IMG/VR virus record: IMGVR_UViG_2541047891_000003 | Reading direction: 5' to 3' (one strand) | Length of the DNA: 40,697 nt | Source of the DNA: a virus | Lineage: Duplodnaviria; Heunggongvirae; Uroviricota; Caudoviricetes | In this document: positions 1,963-29,900 of the stretch, piece by piece | Layout: each line of letters begins with the position of its first letter | Position numbering within the stretch: position 1 is the first letter of the stretch | The notes under the pieces: generated by a model | The model's database searches: none | Told to the model about the DNA's origin: nothing | Seen by the model: only the letters and a program-made list of their open reading frames with translations | Position numbers and translations under genes: made by a program

Positions 1963-4434
1963 TTAAAAATCAGCCTGATTCGGGATCAGTTTTTGCCAGA
2001 TAGCTGAAACGTATTTTGCCTGGTGACGAGCGTCATCAAGTGCATTATGGCGCTCACCTTCGAATGGAATAGCCGTTCTGGCATCGAAGTCTATGGCTTT
2101 CCCCAGCTCAACGATTGTGCGTACATCGCGATCGTTGTAGTAACGCCACGGGCAGGGGATCCCCTGCCGTTCGTATGAACGGCGCAAAATCGTGTTGTCG
2201 AAGTTTGCTCCATTTCCCCAGACCTGAACAAAAAATTCACCGGAGTTTTCGTCGATAAATTCCCGCAATTGTAACAGTGCATCATCTAACGGGATTTCAT
2301 CGGTCATAATGGCAGATTGCGCTTCGCGTGATTGCTTAAGCCACCATTTAATGGTGTCCCGATCAATGACTCCGCCAGCAGTTTCCAGATCGACAGTCTT
2401 ACTAAATTCCGGTCCCATATCTCCGGTTTGCGGATCGAAAAATATTGCACCTATTGAGATAATCGGGGCATCAGGATTTTTTCCCATGGTTTCAAGGTCG
2501 ATCATCAGATGAATCCCCGCTCTGCTGGTGGATGTGAGATTATGATGACCGTTCGCCTTAATTAAGGGATCTGACGCCTCGCCAGTTTCACTATCGCTGG
2601 CATGATGCTGATTGCCGCCAGTGTTCTCCTTGTGCTGATGCGCAGTGCCTTCCATTTCCTCCGGATCATTTTCCTGAACTTCAGGCTGATTCTCTTCATC
2701 GAATATTTCCTGGTATGTTGCGTCACCCATCACCGCACCACAATCAGGGCAGCTACCGCCGCCGATCTGACCGCAGGCGGTGCAGGCTTTTTCCGGCTCC
2801 TGTTGCGCTACTGGTTCAACCTGTTTCGTTTCTGGCTCGTTTTGTTGCGCATTTGGGCTGTTTTGTTCCGTTTTCTGGTCGTTCTGTTCCGATTCTTGCT
2901 GGTTCTGGTTTACAGAGTCGCGGGTTTCAATCCCCTTCACCCATTTCGGATCATTCGGGTCGCTAATCCCTGCAACAAATTCTCCGCGAGAGGCAGCAAG
3001 CAACTTATCGGCGTCAGGCTGGCTGATATTGGCTGCCTGCATAATTTTGTTTACTTCGTCAGCGGTAACTTTTACCGGCTCTGGTTGTGCGGTCGTGTCA
3101 GATGCACCAGTATTTTGTTGTGAACCTGAGTATGTACCGTTTTTGCGGGCAAAATATTCTTCTTTCGTGATTTCAGTAGCCCCTGCAGTCAGCGCCTTAT
3201 TCAGACCAGAAAGTTTGTTTGCGCGACCATATTTTTCGCCATCCTTATCTGTGAAGAGGAAGTAGAACGGCCCCTCACGCTCTACAGATGGTTCGACTTC
3301 CACTTTGCATTCGGTTTTTTCGTTGTCCGGAATTGCCGTTTCCACTGCATCAGTTTCTGGTACTGGCGACGAGAGAGTATCAGTTGCGCTCTGATTTGTT
3401 CCTTCATCTTCAAACACGCCCTTTGTAGTCAGGTATTCAGTAATGTATTTGTTCAGTGCCACAGGGTCTTTGTGAATGTCGATCGGACGTTCACGGACAA
3501 GGCCAAAAATAGTCTGGCGGTCGTAGCGAAGGGCATCAGGCTGTTTGCGCATTGATGCCGAGATACGCTTCCAGTCTTCGCGGTCGTTGTCGATAACTTC
3601 ATTTTTTGCCCAGCGATGGATGCTGCCGTCAATGTTTCCGGCATCCACATCACCAGGCCAGAGAGCGTAGGCCAGTTCGTCATCCAGTGTTTTCCATGTC
3701 TGCTTGTATTCGCGATGAATGGCAGCAATGACCGGGCTGATTTTTCCTGTTGAATTTTCAGTGTACTGTTGATTGGCTCTGGCGCGGGCGAGATCAACAA
3801 CAGACGTGTATTTTCCGGTTTCCTTGCGTTCACCTTCGCGACGTTTTTTCCAGATGCGCATCTCTGCCTGAATTTCGGGCCATTTAGCACCAGGAATACA
3901 TTTATGCTTAACCCACCCAATGGCATGCAGCTTAAGCTCCGGATACATGGCGTTAACTTCTGGCATTTTCATCAACGCTTCAACGATATGTCCGTCGAAT
4001 GTTGCCATGTCTTCCTGCAACAATTCCTGTGCGCTAATAACCATATCAACGGTGATGTTTTCACATGTGTCGAACTTAACCATGACAGCGTTCTGTACTT
4101 CAGGGGCCAGCTTGTCAAAAGTGACGTTCATCGGATCTGATTCAGTCTCAACCGGGACAAAGGAAGCAGAGTCCTCATCCCAGCGGTTTTCCTGCATATA
4201 TTCAGCATCCCAGGAATCGAGGGCAGGGCGGGGTATACCAGGTTTATCCTCGCAAACAAGAAATTTATAAGCGCAGTCCTGAGCAGCCGGATAATGTTCC
4301 AGGAATTGCCAGTGAAATTTTGCGCGGGCGCGACGTTCATCACCGGATTCAATGGCAGTGGCTACAGCGACTGCACCTTCTTCCTTTATTGCCTGTTCGT
4401 CCGGAATGGCGGCGCAAATAAAGACTTTACTCAT
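1963..4434 (-). CDS. Large putative exonuclease with a C-terminal DnaQ-like DEDDh 3'-5' exonuclease domain and a central Cys4 zinc ribbon (often annotated exodeoxyribonuclease VIII-like)
   Basis: 823-aa ORF; motifs LMIDLETMG and HNALDDARHQAKY near the C-terminus; CTACGQIGGGSCPDCG zinc ribbon; acidic Q/E-rich low-complexity linker. Confidence 0.6.
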   Translation of the reverse strand: MSKVFICAAIPDEQAIKEEGAVAVATAIESGDERRARAKFHWQFLEHYPAAQDCAYKFLVCEDKPGIPRPALDSWDAEYMQENRWDEDSASFVPVETESDPMNVTFDKLAPEVQNAVMVKFDTCENITVDMVISAQELLQEDMATFDGHIVEALMKMPEVNAMYPELKLHAIGWVKHKCIPGAKWPEIQAEMRIWKKRREGERKETGKYTSVVDLARARANQQYTENSTGKISPVIAAIHREYKQTWKTLDDELAYALWPGDVDAGNIDGSIHRWAKNEVIDNDREDWKRISASMRKQPDALRYDRQTIFGLVRERPIDIHKDPVALNKYITEYLTTKGVFEDEGTNQSATDTLSSPVPETDAVETAIPDNEKTECKVEVEPSVEREGPFYFLFTDKDGEKYGRANKLSGLNKALTAGATEITKEEYFARKNGTYSGSQQNTGASDTTAQPEPVKVTADEVNKIMQAANISQPDADKLLAASRGEFVAGISDPNDPKWVKGIETRDSVNQNQQESEQNDQKTEQNSPNAQQNEPETKQVEPVAQQEPEKACTACGQIGGGSCPDCGAVMGDATYQEIFDEENQPEVQENDPEEMEGTAHQHKENTGGNQHHASDSETGEASDPLIKANGHHNLTSTSRAGIHLMIDLETMGKNPDAPIISIGAIFFDPQTGDMGPEFSKTVDLETAGGVIDRDTIKWWLKQSREAQSAIMTDEIPLDDALLQLREFIDENSGEFFVQVWGNGANFDNTILRRSYERQGIPCPWRYYNDRDVRTIVELGKAIDFDARTAIPFEGERHNALDDARHQAKYVSAIWQKLIPNQADF

Positions 4435-4513
4435 TTTGTTTTACCTCATTACAGATTTAAGGGTGAACAAATCCCTGCCATTGCTGGCATATAAAAATGA
4501 AACCGGATATTAA

Positions 4514-4717
4514 TTACGGTGCTGTTTTAAGTCCTGCCGGGATTTCGTTATTATCCTGGTGAATAACTTTATCGACCGGGTAACAGTTACCGGGAATTTT
4601 CTGTTCGGTTGCTGCAGTCACACACTCCTGCATTGTCCTGTGAACACTGACTGCAATATCAACTGGCTCTCCGGAAACAAGAAAAACTGTCAGAACAAGT
4701 GCAAATGCTGTATTCAT
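4514..4717 (-). CDS. ydfD: YdfD-like small protein with an N-terminal signal/TM segment (Qin prophage lysis-protein family)
   Basis: 67-aa product MNTAFALVLTVFLVSGEPVDIAVSVHRTMQEC... from the internal ATG at 4717; lies immediately downstream of dicB as in Qin; overlaps the dicB stop. Confidence 0.65.
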   Translation of the reverse strand: MNTAFALVLTVFLVSGEPVDIAVSVHRTMQECVTAATEQKIPGNCYPVDKVIHQDNNEIPAGLKTAP

Positions 4718-5071: not shown

Positions 5072-5129
5072 AAAAAGGGCGGCAGAGCAGTCACGGAGTA
5101 AAACTGATACCGCCAAACGTCACCAGAAA
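5072..5129 (-). ncRNA. dicF: DicF small regulatory RNA (ftsZ-targeting sRNA)
   Basis: Minus-strand sequence TTTCTGGTGACGTTTGGCGGTATCAGTTTTACTCCGTGACTGCTCTGCCGCCCTTTTT matches the DicF sequence I recall; ends in a GC stem plus T-run; about 170 nt upstream of dicB as in Qin. Confidence 0.85.
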
Positions 5130-6761: not shown

Positions 6762-7151
6762 TTATTTTTGTCGTGTTATTGGGTCGACGTATTCTGAGTA
6801 AAATTCGGTCAGTTTTTGAAGTCGCATTTGAAAAGCTGCCAGCATATTTCTACGTTCTACGGGTGGCAGGTTTCTGTAAACATCAAGCAGGGCCTTCTCG
6901 TCATCATCAAGCGCTTCTCTATTTGTCTCTTCTTTCCCTGTCAGTAGCCAAGAAAGGGAAACGTTTGTGGCTTCTGCAATTTTGGCTGCGGAATCTTTAC
7001 TGATTGTTCCTCTTTTTTTCCATGCGTTGACTGATGAACGACCTACACCAGCGATACGCGCTAAATCTGAACCACTTAAATGATGCTGTTGAGAGATCGC
7101 ATCTAACCTTTCTGCTAGCGGGGTGTCGTATTGCTTTTTTCTCATGTCCAT
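6762..7151 (-). CDS. Prophage repressor, HTH (XRE/CI-like) DNA-binding protein, functional analogue of DicA/CI
   Basis: 129-aa ORF with an HTH-like segment LSGSDLARIAGVGRSSVNAWKKRG; divergent from a Cro-like gene across an operator-rich intergenic region. Confidence 0.75.
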   Translation of the reverse strand: MDMRKKQYDTPLAERLDAISQQHHLSGSDLARIAGVGRSSVNAWKKRGTISKDSAAKIAEATNVSLSWLLTGKEETNREALDDDEKALLDVYRNLPPVERRNMLAAFQMRLQKLTEFYSEYVDPITRQK

Positions 7152-7166
7152 TTAGCAATTATAACC

Positions 7167-7250
7167 GTTCAGTGAACACTAACAATTCCTCGAGGTGTTG
7201 ACTTATGTTCGTTTTAAGTGAACAATTGTTGTGGTTAGTTGAACTGGAGG
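7167..7250. promoter_or_regulatory. Immunity-region operator/promoter cluster (palindrome GTTCAGTGAAC, repeated GTGAAC/GTTGAAC half-sites, -35-like TTGACT)
   Basis: Palindrome at 7167-7177; related half-sites at 7216-7244; TTGACT at 7198-7203; lies between the divergent repressor and cro-like genes. Confidence 0.5.
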
Positions 7251-7254
7251 TTGT

Positions 7255-7530
7255 ATGACAGCATTGGACAAAGCAATAAAGATTGCTGGTGGTATTCGTC
7301 CGCTAGGGCGTGCAATAGGGGCTTGGCCATCTCAAATACACAAATGGGCAAATGAATACAATGGTCGAGTTCCGACGGGGGAACGGGTTCGTCAAATTTA
7401 TATTGCAACTGGGGTTACTCCTCATGAATTGCGACCAGATTTATACCCGAATCCAACTGACGGGTTGCCTGCTGGAGATAAGGCTAACACACCAAATACA
7501 CCGGAGTTGATTCATGAAAATCAAGCATGA
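7255..7530 (+). CDS. Cro/DicC/YdaS-like HTH regulator
   Basis: 91-aa ORF MTALDKAIKIAGGIRPLGRAIGAW...ELRPDLYPNP; divergent from the repressor; resembles YdaS-type Cro analogues. Confidence 0.65.
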   Translation: MTALDKAIKIAGGIRPLGRAIGAWPSQIHKWANEYNGRVPTGERVRQIYIATGVTPHELRPDLYPNPTDGLPAGDKANTPNTPELIHENQA

Positions 7531-7939
7531 ACACATCCGTATGGCGATGAATGCCTGGGCGCATCCGGACGGTGAAAAAGTTCCGGCAGCTGAAATAACC
7601 CGGGCTTATTTTGAGCTGGGTATGACGTTCCCGGAGCTATATGACGACAGCCATCCGGAAGCGCTGGCTCGTAATACCCAGAAAATTTTCCGTTGGCTGG
7701 ATAAAGACACCCCTGATGCGGTTAAAAAAATTCAGGCGTTGTTACCAGCGATCGAAAAAGCAATGCCACCTTTGCTGGTGGCCCGAATGCGCAGCCACAG
7801 TTCAGCCTATTTTCGGGAACTGGTGGAGACGCGGGAACGACTGGTGAGAGACGCTGATGATTTTGTCGCAGTGGCGATCGCTGGTTTCAACCAGATGAAT
7901 CGTGGTGGCCCGGCGGGAAATATTGTGGTTGTGCATTGA
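7514..7939 (+). CDS. YdaT-like protein (CII-like regulator family)
   Basis: 141-aa ORF starting MKIKHEHI as I recall YdaT does; overlaps the end of the cro-like gene. Confidence 0.6.
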   Translation: MKIKHEHIRMAMNAWAHPDGEKVPAAEITRAYFELGMTFPELYDDSHPEALARNTQKIFRWLDKDTPDAVKKIQALLPAIEKAMPPLLVARMRSHSSAYFRELVETRERLVRDADDFVAVAIAGFNQMNRGGPAGNIVVVH

Positions 7940-11468: not shown

Positions 11469-11679
11469 TTTTATACCTTTTGTGTTGTGTGAAGGAGCAG
11501 TATAGTCAGAAATGAGACAAGTGAAAGGGGATAGAAAGTAATAGTTTGTTTTTGTAGAATTGCTGCGGGTGCTTGAGGCTATCTGCCTCGGGCATGAACA
11601 CCAACGGCAGATAGAGAAAAGCCCCAGTTAACATTACGCGTCCGGCAAGACGCTTAACATTAATCTGAGGCATATCTGT

Positions 11680-11880
11680 ATGCGACACATAAAGATTAGC
11701 CTCTTAACAGTAAGAAATCAACTAACAGGGGGCTGTAATGCGAAGGAGCTATGTGTTTTGTCTGGTGGTGGTTTGCATCACCATTCTGATATTTGTCGGG
11801 ATGGTTCGCGGTTCGCTATGCGAGCTGCACATCAGGCAGGGAAACACAGAGCTTTCAGCGTATTTAGCCTACGAAGTTGA
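11680..11880 (+). CDS. mok: mok-like overlapping reading frame of a hok-family locus
   Basis: 66-codon ORF starting upstream of, and overlapping in another frame, the hok-like toxin ORF, as in hok/mok/sok loci. Confidence 0.4.
   Translation: MRHIKISLLTVRNQLTGGCNAKELCVLSGGGLHHHSDICRDGSRFAMRAAHQAGKHRAFSVFSLRS
11693..11721 (-). promoter_or_regulatory. sok: Candidate promoter for a Sok-like antisense RNA (minus strand: -35 TTGATT, 17-bp spacer, -10 TAATCT)
   Basis: Promoter-like hexamers on the minus strand positioned so the transcript would be complementary to the mok start region. Confidence 0.35.
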
Positions 11881-11890
11881 AAAACGTTAA
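11738..11890 (+). CDS. hok: Hok/Gef-family type I toxin (50 aa)
   Basis: Hand-translated MRRSYVFCLVVVCITILIFVGMVRGSLCELHIRQGNTELSAYLAYEVEKR; matches the Hok/Gef pattern (TM helix, SLCE motif, conserved C-terminal AYxAYE); GGGGG RBS upstream; not in the ORF track. Confidence 0.85.
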   Translation: MRRSYVFCLVVVCITILIFVGMVRGSLCELHIRQGNTELSAYLAYEVEKR

Positions 11891-11961
11891 GAGCTACGGC
11901 GGGGAGCAATTCCCGCCACTCTTTAAGTTGTCAGGTATCCTCAATGCACCCGCACTTAACC

Positions 11962-12012
11962 CGCTTTAGCGCTGATTTATGGGGATCCCTCAGCGCTTCG
12001 GCGGGTTTTTTG
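11962..12012 (+). terminator. Strong Rho-independent terminator (nested hairpin CCGC..GCGCTGA...TCAGCGC..GCGG then TTTTTT)
   Basis: Long imperfect hairpin followed by T-run 12007-12012; about 70 nt after the hok stop, consistent with a hok mRNA 3' end. Confidence 0.7.
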
Positions 12013-12093
12013 TTGTTTATTTTCGGTGAGCATGATGCATCTGGTTGTACTGATGTGGCTGGCTGATTCTGTTATTCAGGTGGCTTATTGCTG

Positions 12094-12121
12094 TTGATTG
12101 GTATGTCTTCACGGCTAGAAT
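12094..12121 (+). promoter_or_regulatory. Sigma70-like promoter candidate (TTGATT, 16-bp spacer, TAGAAT)
   Basis: Good hexamers with 16-bp spacing; followed by the perfect 12-bp palindrome CCCCTTAAGGGG at 12160-12171. Confidence 0.45.
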
Positions 12122-12201
12122 CGAGGATCTTAAGTAGCGCGCAGGGAGAAGAGGGATGGACCCCTTAAGGGGAGGTGTTTAAAGTTCACGGGATTTTGGT
12201 T

Positions 12202-12369
12202 ATGAACGATAAGGAATTAATTGCTGCGCTCTCTGTACCTGGTAATTATGAAGTAATAGTTCTTGAGAATGGTGAATTTATCGTAATGCCATTGCCACCC
12301 GATGTTATTCTGATCACCAAAGAATCGCATGCGGATTCGGTCAGTCACTTCAGCATTAAGAAAGACTAG
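12202..12369 (+). CDS. Hypothetical small protein
   Basis: ORF MNDKELIAALSVPGNYEVIVLENGEFIVMPLPPDVILITKESHADSVSHFSIKKD; start uncertain (GTG at 12175 sits immediately after the RBS). Confidence 0.4.
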   Translation: MNDKELIAALSVPGNYEVIVLENGEFIVMPLPPDVILITKESHADSVSHFSIKKD

Positions 12370-12435
12370 ATTATAATGCCGTAGTTAAAGCCAGCCTGAA
12401 CAACTGGCGTCTGTCGCACCATTACGAGGATAGTA

Positions 12436-12714
12436 GTGGTGCATTACAAGAAAATTAACAATTCTGATAATACAGCCGTCTTTGCCAGCAGGCACGGGCG
12501 GCGTTCTCATGCATTTAAATCTGACTGGTTCCAGCATGACCCATGCACTGAAGAACAGGCCGAATGGCTGATTCAGAACTATCGCAGACGTGGGTGTGAG
12601 TTTAGGAAAGCCCTCAGCCTCGATTATCGTCACTGGATAATCTACGTCAGGCTCCCTTATTCCGAACGCCCACCACGCCCGTCCCGCACATTCCAGCAAC
12701 GGATCTGGAGGTAA
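12436..12714 (+). CDS. Hypothetical protein
   Basis: 92-aa ORF with GTG start and GAGG 6 nt upstream; directly precedes the ydfU-like gene. Confidence 0.5.
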   Translation: MVHYKKINNSDNTAVFASRHGRRSHAFKSDWFQHDPCTEEQAEWLIQNYRRRGCEFRKALSLDYRHWIIYVRLPYSERPPRPSRTFQQRIWR

Positions 12715-12715
12715 C

Positions 12716-13765
12716 GTGCGGGTATTACTTCGACCTGTTCCGATACCGGAACTCGGGCTGGTGGTCCTTAAACCAGGCCGTGAATCCATGCAGGTATTTC
12801 ATAACTCTCGAGTGCTGGTGGAGCCGGAACCGAAAAGCATGCGCGGCCTGCCATCCGGGGTCGTCCCTGCCGTTCGCCAGCCGCTGGCTGAGGATAAATC
12901 ATTACTGCCATTTTTCAGCGATGAGCGGGTGATTCGTGCTGCTGGCGGCGCTGGCGCATTGTTTGACTGGTTACTGCGCCATGTTAAATCCTGCCAGTGG
13001 CCACACGGCGATTATCATCACAGCGAAACCGTCATTCACCGTTATGGTACCGGCGCGATGGTGTTGTGCTGGCACTGCGACAACCAGTTGCGTGACCAGA
13101 CATCCGAATCACTCGGGCAACTTGCTCATCAAAACCTGTCAGCATGGATGATTGACGTCATACGCCATGCAATGAATGGCACACAGGAGCGGGAATTATC
13201 GCTGGCTGAATTATCCTGGTGGGCAGTCTGCAATCAGGTGGCGGACGCGCTACCGGAGACAGTATTACGTCGTTCTCTGAGGTTACGTGCGGAAAAAATC
13301 CGCTCGGTGTACCGCGAAAGCGACATCATGCCGGGAGAGCAGACAGCCACCAGCATACTGAAGCAGCGCACAAAAAATATTGTGCTATCGCCTCACGCCC
13401 ACCAGCAACAGAACTCACCGCAGGAAAAGGCGGTGGTCAGCATTGCTGTTGATCCTGAGTCTCCGGAATCTTTCATGAAGCGACCTAAACGTCGCCGTTG
13501 GGTAAATGAGAAATATACGCGCTGGGTAAAGACACAGCCGTGTGCGTGTTGTGGTAAGCCAGCCGACGATCCCCATCACCTGATTGGTCACGGTCAGGGA
13601 GGGATGGGAACAAAGGCCCACGATATTTTCACGCTACCGTTGTGCCGGGAACATCACAATGAACTTCATGCGGATCCGCTGGCGTTCGAAGAAAAGCATG
13701 GTTCCCAGGTTGATTTAATTTTTCGTTTTCTTGATCACGCCTTTGCAACCGGCGTGCTCGGGTAA
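12716..13765 (+). CDS. ydfU: YdfU-like protein (DUF968, Cys/His-rich C-terminus)
   Basis: 349-aa ORF; C-terminus CACCGKPADDPHHLIGHGQGGMGTKAHD...CREHHNELH; same length as Qin YdfU. Confidence 0.7.
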   Translation: MRVLLRPVPIPELGLVVLKPGRESMQVFHNSRVLVEPEPKSMRGLPSGVVPAVRQPLAEDKSLLPFFSDERVIRAAGGAGALFDWLLRHVKSCQWPHGDYHHSETVIHRYGTGAMVLCWHCDNQLRDQTSESLGQLAHQNLSAWMIDVIRHAMNGTQERELSLAELSWWAVCNQVADALPETVLRRSLRLRAEKIRSVYRESDIMPGEQTATSILKQRTKNIVLSPHAHQQQNSPQEKAVVSIAVDPESPESFMKRPKRRRWVNEKYTRWVKTQPCACCGKPADDPHHLIGHGQGGMGTKAHDIFTLPLCREHHNELHADPLAFEEKHGSQVDLIFRFLDHAFATGVLG

Positions 13766-13777
13766 AAGAGGTTACTG

Positions 13778-14152
13778 ATGCGTATAGAGTTTGTTTTGCC
13801 TTATCCGCCGACGGTGAATACTTACTGGCGACGTCGTGGCAACACATATTTTGTATCAAAAGCCGGTGAGCGTTATCGTCGTGATGTGGCGCTCATTGTT
13901 CGCCAGCAGCGACTGAAATTAAACCTGTCCGGAAGGCTGGCGATAAAGATTATTGCAGAGCCACCGGATAAGCGCCGTCGTGACCTGGACAATATTCTGA
14001 AAGCACCACTGGATGCGCTGACGCATGCGGGACTGCTTATCGATGACGAGCAGTTTGATGAAATCAATATTGTGCGAGGTCAGGTCGTTCCTGGTGGTCG
14101 GCTGGGCGTGAAGATTTACGAAATAATGCATGACGGGCAGGTCCAAAAATGA
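13778..14152 (+). CDS. rusA: RusA-family Holliday junction resolvase
   Basis: 124-aa ORF with the RRRDLDNxxKAxxDALT motif typical of RusA. Confidence 0.85.
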   Translation: MRIEFVLPYPPTVNTYWRRRGNTYFVSKAGERYRRDVALIVRQQRLKLNLSGRLAIKIIAEPPDKRRRDLDNILKAPLDALTHAGLLIDDEQFDEINIVRGQVVPGGRLGVKIYEIMHDGQVQK

Positions 14153-14970
14153 AACTGGAAGATTTACCGAAATACTATTCCCCGAAATCGCCAGGCCTGA
14201 CTGATGCATCCGCCTCGACATCAAAAGATGCACTGAGTATCACTGATGTGATGGCTGCACAGGGCATGACACAGAACCGGGCTGAGATGGGATTTTCTGC
14301 GTTCCTGGGGAAAATGGGCATTAGTATGAACGACAGGGCGCGGGCAACAGAATTACTGGCAGATTATGCATTAAGTCAGTGCGATCGCGTGGCGGCGTTA
14401 AGAAAACTTCCGGCAGAAATAAAACCGGCAGTGATGCGCATTATGGCTTCGTATGCTTTTGAGGATTATGCCCGCAGTGCAGCGAGTAAAAAGCAGTGCC
14501 CTTGTTGCGGTGGGAAAAAATTTATTGAAAGCGTAGTTTTTACAAACAAGGTCCGGTATCCGGATGGTAAACCGCCGGTATGGGCAAAGTGTACAAAGGG
14601 TGTGTATCCGTCTTACTGGGAAGAATGGAAAAAAATCCGGGAGGTGGTGAAAGTTTCTTGTCCTGAATGTAAAGGGAAGGGGGAGATTTCCACTGCCTGT
14701 AAAGACTGCCGTGGGCGTGGTGTTGCCATTCATCGTGAAGAGTCGGAAAAACGGGGTATGCCTGTAATCAGGAACTGCCAGCGTTGTGGCGGTCGGGGCT
14801 ATGAAAGACTACCATCAACGGAGGCATTTAATGCCATACGCAAAGTGACGAGTGCTATCACGCTTGATACGTGGAAAAAATCAGTGAAACGCTTTTACGA
14901 TACGTTGGTGGTTCGGTTTGACATTGAAGAGGCATGGGCGGAGCGGCAGTTAAAGAGGGTAACGCGATAG
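14149..14970 (+). CDS. quuQ: Late-gene antiterminator Q (phage 82/Qin QuuQ-like, zinc-finger type)
   Basis: 273-aa ORF with multiple CxxC pairs; typical position upstream of the lysis genes. Confidence 0.75.
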   Translation: MKLEDLPKYYSPKSPGLTDASASTSKDALSITDVMAAQGMTQNRAEMGFSAFLGKMGISMNDRARATELLADYALSQCDRVAALRKLPAEIKPAVMRIMASYAFEDYARSAASKKQCPCCGGKKFIESVVFTNKVRYPDGKPPVWAKCTKGVYPSYWEEWKKIREVVKVSCPECKGKGEISTACKDCRGRGVAIHREESEKRGMPVIRNCQRCGGRGYERLPSTEAFNAIRKVTSAITLDTWKKSVKRFYDTLVVRFDIEEAWAERQLKRVTR

Positions 14971-16051: not shown

Positions 16052-16127
16052 GGCCCTTTAGCTCAGTGGTGAGAGCGAGCGACTCATAATCGCCAGGTCG
16101 CTGGTTCAAATCCAGCAAGGGCCACCA
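16052..16127 (+). tRNA. ileZ: tRNA-Ile2 (anticodon CAU, lysidine type; could alternatively be tRNA-Met)
   Basis: Cloverleaf with acceptor GGCCCTT/AAGGGCC, anticodon loop CTCATAA, T-loop TTCAAAT, CCA end; close to E. coli ileX as I recall it. Confidence 0.8.
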
Positions 16128-16128
16128 A

Positions 16129-16205
16129 CCGCCACTAGCTCATCAGGAAAGAGCGTCAACCCTTTAAGTTGAGAGTGCGAGGTTCGAGTCCCCGGTGGCG
16201 GTCCA
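16129..16205 (+). tRNA. tRNA with atypical anticodon loop CCTTTAA (anticodon UUU = Lys if canonical; C at position 33)
   Basis: Acceptor CCGCCAC/GTGGCGG, D-arm GCTC..GAGC, anticodon stem TCAAC/GTTGA, T-loop TTCGAGT, CCA end; identity uncertain. Confidence 0.6.
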
Positions 16206-16207
16206 GT

Positions 16208-16283
<76 letters not shown>

Positions 16284-16286
16284 TAT

Positions 16287-16361
<75 letters not shown>

Positions 16362-26901: not shown

Positions 26902-29900
26902 ATGAGTGTGGCGACATTACGTGAACTGATTATTAAAATCTCGGCAAATTCCCGGTCATTCCAGTCAGAGATCTCCCGGGCTTCGCGTATGGGGCAGGAT
27001 TACTACCGTACCATGCAGAACGGAGGCCGGCAGTCCGCTGCTGCATCCCGTGAAATGCGGCGTGCACTGGCAGAAGTGACGGATCAGATAAATACAGCTA
27101 AATCTTCGGCACTGAATATGGCGGGGGCATTTGCCGGGGCTTTTGCTACCGGTCATCTTATTTCTCTCGCCGATGAGTGGAATTCAGTAAATGCCCGTCT
27201 GAAGCAGGCCTCACAGTCCAGTGATGATTTTCAGGCATCACAGCGTGAATTAATGGCGATCAGCCAGAGAACGGGGACGGCGTTTTCTGATAACGCCAGC
27301 CTTTTTGCCCGTTCTGCAGCTTCCATGCGGGAGTATGGTTACAGTTCTGAGGAGGTACTGAAAGTCACCGAGGCGATCTCCACGGGCCTGAAATTATCCG
27401 GTGCCAGTACAGCAGAAGCCAGTTCGGTGATCACGCAGTTCAGTCAGGCACTGGCGCAGGGAGTGCTGCGCGGTGAAGAGTTTAACTCGGTGAATGAGAA
27501 CGGCGATCGTGTTATTCGTGCGCTGGCTGCGGGAATGGGGGTTGCCCGTAAGGATCTGAAGGCCATGGCGGATAACGGAAAGTTGACCGCCGATAAGGTT
27601 GTTCCTGCACTGATTAGTCAGCTTGGGGCATTACGTGATGAATATGCGGCAATGCCTGATACGGTTTCATCCTCTGCAACCAAAGTTGAAAACGCCTTTA
27701 TGGCCTGGGTTGGTGGTGCGAACGAGGCAAGCGGAGTGACGAAGACGCTCTCCGGTGTGCTGAATGGTATTGCAGGCAATATTGACACTGTGGCAACCGC
27801 TGCCGGTGCTCTGGTTGCCGTCGGGGTAGCCCGATATTTTGGCAATATGGCGTCTTCTGCTGGATCTGCAACTGCCGGATTAATTACTGCAGCCAGAAAC
27901 GAAGTGGCTCTTGCGGAAGCGCAGCTCCGGGGGACACAGATAGCAACAGCCAGGGCGCGTGCGGCGGTTTATCGTGCGCAACAGGCGGTTGTTGCTGCTC
28001 GCGGTACCGAAAGGCAGGCAGCCGCAGAAGCGAAACTGGCTGCTGCCCAGGCATCACTTACCCGTAATATTGCGGCCAGAACAGCAGCACAGACAACGCT
28101 GAATACTGTCACGTCAGTGGGAAGTCGTCTGTTAAGTGGAGCACTGGGACTGGTTGGTGGGGTGCCGGGGCTTGTCATGCTGGGGGCCGCGGCCTGGTAC
28201 ACGATGTATCAGAATCAGGAGCAGGCCAGAGAATCTGCACGCCAGTATGCCGCAACAATCGACGAAATTCGCCAGAAAACGTCGGCAATGTCGCTTCCTG
28301 AAGCGTCAGATAATGAGGAAAAGACGCGGCAGGCACTGGAGGAACAAAATCGCCTGATTAGCGAACAGGAAGGAAAAATTCGCGGACTGAAAAATCAAAT
28401 TGCTGATTATCAACGTTGGCTTGATGAAAGTTCGCAGAGTGGTTCGGGTGCTGAAATCATCCTTAAAGGGCTTGCCGAAGCAACAAATCAACTGGCAGTT
28501 GAACAATCCCGTCTCACTCAAATGCAGGGCAAAGCGCAATCTATTCAGGATGTGCTTGCCGGGCTGGAGGAGCGACGGGTGGCGTTGATCCGTCAACAGG
28601 CGGCGGAACAAAACAAAGCGTATCAGTCCCTGTTGATCATGAATGGGCAGCATACCGAGTTTAATCGCCTTCTTGGGCTTGGTAATGAATTACTTCAGCA
28701 GCGACAGGGGCTGGTGAATGTACCGTTACGGCTACCACAGGCAACCCTGGATGATAAACAGCAGACCGCACTGAATAACAGCAAGCGCGAACTGGCTCTG
28801 TCCCGCCTTAAGGGGGAAGCGCGTGAGCGTGCCCGACTGGGCTATGCTGCGGATGATCTCGGCTTTGTGGGAGAGGCGTATCAGACAGCCAGACAGAATT
28901 ATATCAATAACTCACTGGATGCCTGGCGAAATAACCAGGCAAATAAACCCAAAACGCATAAAAAGACCGAAGCGGAAAAAACAGAAGATATTTATAAACG
29001 GCTGATTAAACAGCAAAAAGAACAGATAGCACTGGCAGGGCAGAATACTGAACTGGCTAAGATGAAATATCAGGTCAGTCAGGGCGAATTATCAACCTTA
29101 TCAGAAGCGCAGAAACAAACCCTTTTACAGAATGCAGCACTCATCGACCAGAAAAAAATTCGTGAGCAAATTGCTGCTTATGAAAGCAGCCTGGCGGACA
29201 GTAACGCCAGTGTCAGGGCATCAAATGAGGCTCAGTTGTTAGGGTATGGAGACGGAACACGAATACGTGAGCGGCTTCAGGAAATGTGGAACATCCGACA
29301 GGAGTTTGAGCAGAAAAATAATGAGTTGCTGAGACAGTACCAGACCGGAGAAATCGAAGAAGCCCTGTGGAAACAGGAAAAAACGCTGAATGAAAAATAT
29401 CTGGAGGAGCGTCTCAACGATCAGCAGGATTATTATGCAAAGGCCGATGCTTTACGCAGTAACTGGAATGCCGGGCTCAAAGAGGGGCTGACGAACTGGG
29501 CAGACAGTGCCACTGATTATGCTTCACAAGCGGCAGATGCGGTCGTTTCCACTATGGATGGTCTGGTTTCAAATATTTCTGAGGCACTGGCCGGAAACGT
29601 TGTGGACTGGAGAAACTGGGGGAGTTCGATCCTTCAGGAAGTTTCAAAAATCCTGATGAACGCGGCAATTGTTAACGGGCTGAAATCACTCTCCGGGACA
29701 ATGTCGGGAGCGGGGGGATGGATTGGTAGTGTTGGCGACTGGCTTTCCGGTGCAGTAGCGAACGCAAAAGGCGGTGTTTACACATCGGCAAATCTGAGTG
29801 CTTACAGTAACACCATTGTGGACACGCCGACGTACTTTGCTTTTGCGAAAGGTGCCGGGCTGATGGGGGAAGCCGGACCTGAAGCTATCATGCCGCTTAC

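Follow-up and report, generated by a model that had tools for sequence, protein, structure and literature searches.

Rem (b1561), encoded by the prophage Qin of Escherichia coli K-12, has been shown experimentally to be an antirepressor of DicA; dicBp was derepressed 165-fold, mitomycin C does not induce this promoter, and the signal that induces Rem was stated to be unknown (PMC10448788). In the Gifsy phages, the antirepressors GfoA, GftA and GfhA are encoded by small genes located far from the immunity region, past a terminator-like palindrome and a promoter and downstream of the replication genes; they act on non-cleavable repressors of roughly 130–150 amino acids (aa), their genes are LexA-controlled and preceded by dinI, and short non-cleavable repressors of the DicA/GfoR type have been reported in most E. 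coli genomes (PMC3121763). Here, a locus of the IMG/VR virus record IMGVR_UViG_2541047891_000003 was compared with these systems. The whole stretch analysed (40,697 nucleotides (nt), hereafter named the window) is a lambdoid, Qin-like E. coli prophage. A preliminary description of positions 12,094–12,714 had listed a promoter, a perfect palindrome and two open reading frames (ORFs), a small one and one of 92 aa; all these features were found at the positions given there, between the hok/sok locus and ydfU. In the Qin prophage of K-12, hokD is followed by rem, and a gap of 346 bp without annotation separates rem from ydfU (NC_000913.3); the locus of the window, with its first ORF of 55 aa, occupies the slot that in Qin-like lambdoid prophages is taken by the antirepressor gene (rem). 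On balance, we consider it rather probable that a lambdoid prophage of the Qin/DicA type has its antirepressor module here.

The strongest evidence for an antirepressor role came from the repressors encoded in the same prophages. The prophage repressor of the window, here called RepW (129 aa), contains a helix-turn-helix (HTH) domain, lacks an S24 cleavage domain and is 25% identical to DicA (expectation value (E) 7e-6). About 260 related prophage loci, mostly from E. coli and related by descent, served as the comparison set. Three classes of small protein were compared in these loci, namely Rem (83–90 aa), a short Rem-like class (57 aa) and the 55-aa class. The 55-aa ORF was accompanied by a repressor with a RepW-type C-terminal domain (..PPVExxNMLxAFxMRL..) in 16/16 loci, Rem by one with a DicA-type C-terminal domain (..LPxSEQ..EMRARVxNF..) in 52/54 loci, and the 57-aa Rem-like proteins by repressors of 153–154 aa with a third type of C-terminal domain in 41 of the 46 loci, although these co-occurrences are not independent events, the loci being related by descent. 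The RepW-type domain was joined to two HTH domains, the DicA-type domain to four HTH types and the third type to two HTH domains. No cross-class pair of antirepressor and repressor was found among the three classes. The DNA next to the promoter recombines among the classes while the repressor C-terminal domain, 5–7 kb away, stays matched. This fits an antirepressor that would recognise the C-terminal domain of its repressor. In seven loci (L149, L198, L209, L229, L255, L204 and L263) Rem or Rem-like proteins stand with repressors of other types, either 139-aa, 123-aa short or 238-aa long ones; the 238-aa repressor may be S24-like, judging from its length alone, and these loci may hold further antirepressor–repressor pairs. 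The immunity region of the window (6762–7939) is of the RacR/YdaS/YdaT type.

Both small ORFs behave as coding sequences. The ratio of nonsynonymous to synonymous polymorphism (pN/pS) was 0.32 in the 55-aa frame, calculated from few substitutions. The other frames gave 0.69 and 2.4, and the rem frame of the relatives 0.35. The 92-aa frame was open in 84/84 related Escherichia loci, with a pN/pS of 0.14 versus about 1–9 in control frames. In addition, "hypothetical proteins" of 55 and 92–94 aa are annotated in RefSeq genomes with the same arrangement, and the Prokaryotic Genome Annotation Pipeline (PGAP) calls the 55-aa ORF in relatives. Judged by this comparison, the two ORFs are real genes. 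The longest form of the first ORF begins at GTG 12175, 3 nt after the palindrome, and comprises 64 aa; ATG 12202 (55 aa) is favoured by the RefSeq annotators and by the alignment with Rem.

Profile comparisons with hhalign linked the 55-aa ORF to the 57-aa Rem-like class (E 7.4e-4 over 41 columns, low probability) and to Rem (E 9.4e-3, low probability), together with a marginal similarity to GfoA-like proteins (E 0.028); Rem and the GfoA-like proteins matched each other with an E of 1.5e-3. When the first 27 residues were compared with Rem, Smith-Waterman shuffling gave p 0.005–0.03. Direct similarity to Rem is weak, and the 57-aa class bridges the two; the 55-aa protein is viewed as a probable short-form antirepressor of the Rem/GfoA class. 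The preliminary description had regarded both small proteins as members of no recognised family. This held for Pfam-A (no family at E ≤ 1 for either protein) and for NCBIfam, in which nothing useful was matched, but not for PHROGs, where the 92-aa ORF was assigned to phrog_34610 and phrog_1212; as to the first ORF, it lies in the rem slot with the rem promoter, the rem leader and a weak N-terminal motif. Homology to nin-region proteins, an outcome that the same description had named as one that would contradict it, was not detected with the hidden Markov models of the lambda NinB/E/F/G/H Pfam families at E ≤ 1 in either protein. The copy of Pfam-A searched does not include the PF27490 model and returns no family for Rem itself. 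In the precomputed annotation, PF27490 was present on Rem-family proteins (protein clusters P0206–P0293).

The promoter consists of TTGATT (12094–12099), a 16-nt spacer and TAGAAT (12116–12121), which makes nine matches out of 12 to the consensus. Since five sites of this quality were observed in 1.6 kb and 2.3 ± 1.5 were expected, the hexamer match alone is not above chance; it is conservation that makes it convincing. The 180 loci carrying Rem (83–90 aa), the 57-aa Rem-like class or the 55-aa class were used for the comparison of promoters and leaders. In 177 of them, a conserved leader core was found with TAGAAT fixed 15–16 nt before it. The 30 nt preceding TAGAAT fell into ten unrelated sequence groups, each of which supplies a TTGnnn at 16 or 18 nt, and these ten groups are shuffled among the three antirepressor gene classes. 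The region upstream of K-12 rem has the same TAGAAT and about 45 nt of leader in common with the window. The comparison speaks strongly for a genuine sigma-70-type promoter at 12094–12121, and transcription is predicted to start near 12127–12129. The sigma70-like promoter proposed in the preliminary description is, hence, borne out by its conservation in relatives and not by the consensus match alone.

A different explanation for the same conservation is that TAGAAT and the leader block are a mere recombination linker at a mosaic joint, with no regulatory role. The block does have interchangeable contexts upstream of it and interchangeable gene classes downstream, a position in which the joints of lambdoid mosaics are expected. 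However, all ten unrelated contexts supply TTGnnn at the correct spacing, which a linker would not need, and the block holds a Shine-Dalgarno sequence, an ATG and a stem with a loop that is free to vary. The K-12 data point in the same direction: in a compendium of 3,376 RNA-seq sets, rem was scored as co-transcribed with neither hokD nor ydfU (PMC10392735 file 5), which indicates that rem is a transcription unit of its own in this strain. A plain linker is considered very unlikely. No entry was found in an in vitro transcription (ROSE) supplement. A search for a LexA box (CTG-N10-CAG) within 11900–12450 was negative.

The leader of the window is ~75 nt long, and a core of ~45 nt is conserved across the relatives. 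The segment 12137–12164 is near-invariant, and contains several GGA motifs and a GGGAG Shine-Dalgarno sequence (12144–12148) located 7 nt before an invariant upstream ATG (12156). The core is conserved across the three antirepressor classes and the ten promoter contexts. When it was used in an unbiased scan, 105/105 usable matches were followed by Rem (83–90 aa), by the short Rem-like protein (57 aa) or by the 55-aa class, and no second copy was found anywhere in the window. The ATG opens a short upstream ORF, which in the window has eight codons and ends 19 nt before the 55-aa ORF. In rem-type relatives its stop codon overlaps the antirepressor ATG (91 loci) or lies 2 nt before the antirepressor (14 loci), and in another 32 loci the upstream ORF is fused in frame to the antirepressor. 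The idea that the upstream ORF encodes a conserved peptide was rejected, as its sequence and length vary and the start alone is kept. A search for antisense RNA complementary to the leader across the window gave only chance-level 9–10-mers, and Rfam returned nothing in 11900–12800 at gathering or permissive thresholds. No paper on the leader sequence was found by full-text search, and a literature search found no follow-up work on rem regulation. In one related locus (L095), the leader has an 18-nt tandem duplication (AGGGATGGCCCCCATAAG), so that the upstream ATG is present twice, as is the 5' half of the hairpin described below.

The GGA motifs would also suit a model in which CsrA reads the leader core, bridging GGAUGGA at the hairpin and GGA at the antirepressor ribosome site and blocking translation, with induction following host physiology. 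The consensus obtained for CsrA by systematic evolution of ligands by exponential enrichment (SELEX) is RUACARGGAUGU, whose core is matched by AGGGAUG of the leader. An alternative fold of the leader places AUGGAC in a hairpin loop, and five GGA were counted by eye in the ~75-nt leader of the window. A second GGA overlaps the Shine-Dalgarno sequence in rem-type leaders (GGAAGGA) and in the window lies in CACGGGAU. Nevertheless, this is a case made by motifs alone, and purine-rich ribosome sites contain GGA by default. Moreover, rem was absent from the examined parts of supplements on CsrA cross-linking and immunoprecipitation (CLIP) and ribosome profiling, and no paper linking CsrA to antirepressors of this type was found. 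Control by CsrA is considered unlikely.

The palindrome at 12161–12172, present as a single exact copy in the window (0.09 expected), had been described as either an operator or a translational hairpin. A search for it elsewhere in the prophage, which had been suggested at the same time, gave no second exact copy and no copy near any prophage promoter; one copy with a mismatch (CGCCTTAAGGGG, 28804–28815) lies far downstream, probably in the structural-gene part, and is most likely due to chance. As an operator, the palindrome would bind a dimeric regulator that represses the promoter, and a perfect 12-bp inverted repeat about 35–45 bp past the predicted transcription start, unique in the window, has the form of such a site. 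However, the relatives keep only the CCCC/GGGG stem. There are 17 loop variants of 3–6 nt (GAACA, AAACA, GAA, GAGAA and ATAA, among others), the central TTAA is not conserved, and the K-12 counterpart is CCCTTAAAGGGG. Since a dimeric DNA-binding protein would not tolerate free loop sequence and spacing, the operator is not supported, and we attach very little probability to it. The hairpin half of the original description fits better. The stem begins 2 nt after the invariant ATG, which has its Shine-Dalgarno sequence 7 nt before it, and a C-to-U variant of the stem among the relatives keeps a G.U pair. The palindrome is probably an RNA stem that tunes translation, placed at an entry site that would feed ribosomes to the antirepressor start.

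An RNA hairpin in this position could also act as the boxB-like part of an antitermination site of the nut type. The boxB of lambda has GNRA-like pentaloops, and most of the relatives have CCCC-GAACA-GGGG or pentaloops GAGAA/GAGCA. Against a nut site stand the loop of the window itself (UUAA) and that of 17 loci with AAACA, the absence of a boxA-like CGCTCTTA upstream, the lack of an Rfam match and a pL region without an evident N-like gene; the site lies, furthermore, in the nin-equivalent region behind a promoter of its own. We give this possibility hardly any credence, and prefer the translational stem.

The second ORF was confirmed to be rich in Arg, Trp and His, as previously noted (14 Arg, 4 Trp and 5 His, counted by eye from the translation). 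It matched phrog_34610 (E 3e-38) and, with residues 27–92 only, phrog_1212 (E 5.5e-37), both annotated as families of unknown function. A profile search against 1.84 billion representatives gave 78 relatives, mostly of 66 aa, matching residues 28–92. In the AlphaFold2 model there is a beta-alpha-beta-beta core of ~65 aa, with a predicted local distance difference test (pLDDT) score of about 95, preceded by an Escherichia-specific tail of 26 residues that is of low confidence and disordered in the model. A 134-aa antisense ORF that spans this gene (12385–12789, minus strand) was discarded as an artefact, explained by the third codon positions that the two ORFs share, since the antisense ORF is broken in many relatives. 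In all loci that were checked, the end of the 92-aa ORF coincides with the ribosome site of ydfU. In Klebsiella the 66-aa homologue is located directly before the DUF968 gene, and in Citrobacter there is one gene (121 aa) between them. The 92-aa gene is a constant upstream partner of DUF968/YdfU. Within the gap between rem and ydfU of K-12 MG1655, an intact 92-codon homologue was identified at about 1644584–1644306 (minus strand). It starts with ATG, has GGAG as its Shine-Dalgarno sequence and is unannotated in the RefSeq record NC_000913.3.

Two hairpins flank the 92-aa gene. The first one (12416–12442) holds the Shine-Dalgarno sequence of this gene in its loop and the GTG start in its 3' arm. 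It was present in 9/9 sequence variants, with free energies (dG) of −11 to −16.6 kcal/mol, and showed compensatory double changes at three pairs. In K-12, Term-seq detected a reproducible RNA 3' end at 1644572/3 (minus strand) in three data sets (PMC7815308 supplementary file 1), which we placed 5 nt after the equivalent of this hairpin; the sequences listed there extend 10 nt beyond the 3' end, as checked on a canonical terminator of the same table. This 3' end was assigned to the "orphan" class and maps a short way into the K-12 92-codon homologue. In the second hairpin (12683–12722), the GGAGG and GTG of ydfU pair with sequence of the 92-aa ORF, within its final 11 codons. The hairpin forms in each of the 16 sequence variants (dG −15 to −21 kcal/mol), and varies too little to show covariation. 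Since the end of the 92-aa ORF supplies the sequence that sequesters the ydfU ribosome site, the two genes are predicted from the structure to be translationally coupled.

Several of the observations weigh against the antirepressor module and the leader control proposed here. No alignment was obtained by BLASTP between the 55-aa ORF and Rem, the hhalign probabilities for this pair are low, and the precomputed PF27490 assignments fall on Rem clusters and not on 55-aa clusters. The seven loci with other repressor types depart from the matching of classes, and the shared descent of the loci lowers the value of its counts. With regard to the leader, the length of the upstream ORF and its relation to the main start differ among the classes, the leader of the window is not unusually stable as a whole (RNAfold z = +1.0), and RNAfold prefers a competing pairing, GAGGG/CCCUU. 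Compensatory double changes were never seen in the CCCC/GGGG stem. Finally, read-through from hokD could account for the K-12 RNA with its 3' end at 1644572.

The lack of BLASTP similarity to Rem and of a Pfam or NCBIfam family would also be expected if the 55-aa ORF were an unrelated, "moron"-like accessory gene placed downstream of the promoter and leader of rem, with a repressor link that reflected no more than shared phage descent. The family is indeed tiny (11 clusters, confined to Escherichia and Shigella), and the co-occurrence counts lack phylogenetic independence. On the other hand, the repressors linked to the 55-aa ORF have two unrelated DNA-binding domains and one C-terminal domain, and this C-terminal domain stays matched over 5–7 kb despite free recombination of the upstream DNA among the classes. 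In addition, the leader never precedes anything but Rem-family genes, and the profile similarity runs through the bridging 57-aa class. An accessory gene is considered rather unlikely, and the 55-aa ORF is treated below as a candidate antirepressor.

In the mechanism that we propose, the dedicated sigma-70 promoter, past the hok terminator, would produce a short mRNA with the ~75-nt leader, as suggested by comparison with the relatives. In a lysogen, the leader would hold antirepressor expression down after transcription initiation. Its Shine-Dalgarno sequence and ATG would open the upstream ORF and, together with the hairpin and the GGA motifs, set the supply of ribosomes to the antirepressor start; a trans-acting factor probably reads the invariant core, and control would not be exerted via LexA. 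The 55-aa protein would then bind the C-terminal, non-DNA-binding domain of RepW, and the early promoters would be derepressed. The mRNA may end at, or be trimmed back to, the hairpin at 12416–12442, as is partly seen in K-12, and this hairpin would also hide the start of the 92-aa gene. The 92-aa/ydfU pair would, from the structure, belong to the downstream ydfU-rusA-Q unit and not to the antirepressor unit.

Rem is the only known trigger for Qin-type prophages, and the present analysis delimits its control region, namely the −10 hexamer, a 45-nt leader core, the upstream ATG and the hairpin. At least three antirepressor classes stand under this one control region, each of them matched to a repressor C-terminal domain, and this suggests which prophages can cross-induce. 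A conserved small gene without K-12 annotation, predicted to be coupled to ydfU, is also flagged. A wider proposal, possible but doubtful at present, is that the leader (12137–12172) and its relatives are a non-SOS, post-transcriptional switch that gates Rem-type antirepressors, is read by a host RNA-binding factor or a physiological signal and decides induction for a whole class of E. coli/Shigella prophages, with the repressor C-terminal domain defining "induction groups" that fire together. If true, numerous prophages of O157 would fall under the switch, and so would the dicBF cell-division inhibitors.

The features of the locus and of its surroundings are collected in Table 1. The hok terminator insulates the antirepressor module from transcription coming from upstream. 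Compared with K-12 and O157 relatives, this terminator (11958–12012) contains an insertion of ~30 nt, which makes the nested second hairpin.

Table 1. Coordinates of the features of the window discussed in the text
Feature	Position	Strand	Basis or match
DicF RNA	5077–5128	−	
Prophage repressor RepW, 129 aa	6762–7151	−	Pfam Phage_CI_repr/HTH_3 only
YdaS-like Cro analogue, divergent	7255–7530		
YdaT-like protein	7514–7939		
sok RNA	11567–11740		Rfam match
sok/hok locus	11567–11890		Rfam (sok) and Pfam HOK_GEF E 3.5e-18 (hok ORF)
hok mRNA terminator, nested GC hairpin and T-run	11958–12012	+	Sequence, inverted repeat I2
Promoter TTGATT-16-TAGAAT	12094–12121	+	
Leader core GCGCGCAGGGAGAAGAGGGATGGACCCC	12137–12164	+	
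Short upstream ORF MDPLRGGV, 8 codons	12156–12182	+	
Palindrome CCCCTTAAGGGG (CCCC-UUAA-GGGG RNA hairpin)	12161–12172	+	
55-aa ORF, candidate antirepressor, short Rem-like class	12202–12369	+	
Hairpin GCACCAUUAC-GAGGAUA-GUAGUGGUGC	12416–12442	+	
92-aa ORF, GTG start	12436–12714	+	
Two-tier hairpin over the ydfU start	12683–12722	+	Inverted repeat I8
ydfU homologue, DUF968, HNH-like C-terminus	12716–13765	+	Pfam DUF968 E 4.7e-78; phrog_96
rusA	13778–14152		
Q antiterminator	14149–14970		
Four tRNAs	16052–16358		

Small-antirepressor control of non-cleavable repressors is a kind of system already known, and the functional steps proposed for the window are inferred. The putative coupling of the 92-aa gene to ydfU has its counterpart in the coat and replicase genes of the RNA phage MS2, where translation is coupled via a hairpin that hides the downstream ribosome site. 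The Shine-Dalgarno sequence and GTG of ydfU are likewise paired inside the end of the 92-aa ORF, the coupling in the window being predicted from sequence folding.

The window resembles the Gifsy arrangement in having a terminator, then its own promoter and then a small gene outside the immunity region, but the LexA box and the dinI homologue of Gifsy are absent from its locus. In Citrobacter and Klebsiella (L265–L269, at about 2300–4600), a dinI homologue and a GfoA-like gene of 81–85 aa were found directly before the 66-aa homologue, and in some E. coli loci a GfoA-like gene of 70 aa occupies the rem slot. Since GfoA-like genes precede the 66-aa/DUF968 pair, the slot upstream of the 92-aa/DUF968 pair can be viewed as a general antirepressor slot.

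Among the small proteins, the 57-aa Rem-like class (MKIEEL...ALIPDDHVVLSVEAFIEYLERLGFKVVRE) comes closest to the 55-aa ORF in the profile comparisons, and the two have the same leader, a similar length and a two-motif layout; they differ in sequence (about 32% identity), in the PF27490 match of the 57-aa proteins and in the third class of repressor C-terminal domain that goes with these. Rem itself is longer (83–86 aa versus 55 aa), and the repressor that goes with it differs in its C-terminal domain; the hhalign motif alignments, if right, show the 55-aa ORF to be without the central ~28 residues and the KAGFSAF tail of Rem. The N-terminal motif M-x-x-x-EL...G-x-Y-x-V-x-V-ENG is weakly shared by the two proteins, both are partnered by a short repressor without a cleavage domain and neither gene has a LexA box. 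The slot between hok and the 92-aa/ydfU pair, the −10 hexamer and the leader core are all common to the window and to the Qin prophage of K-12.

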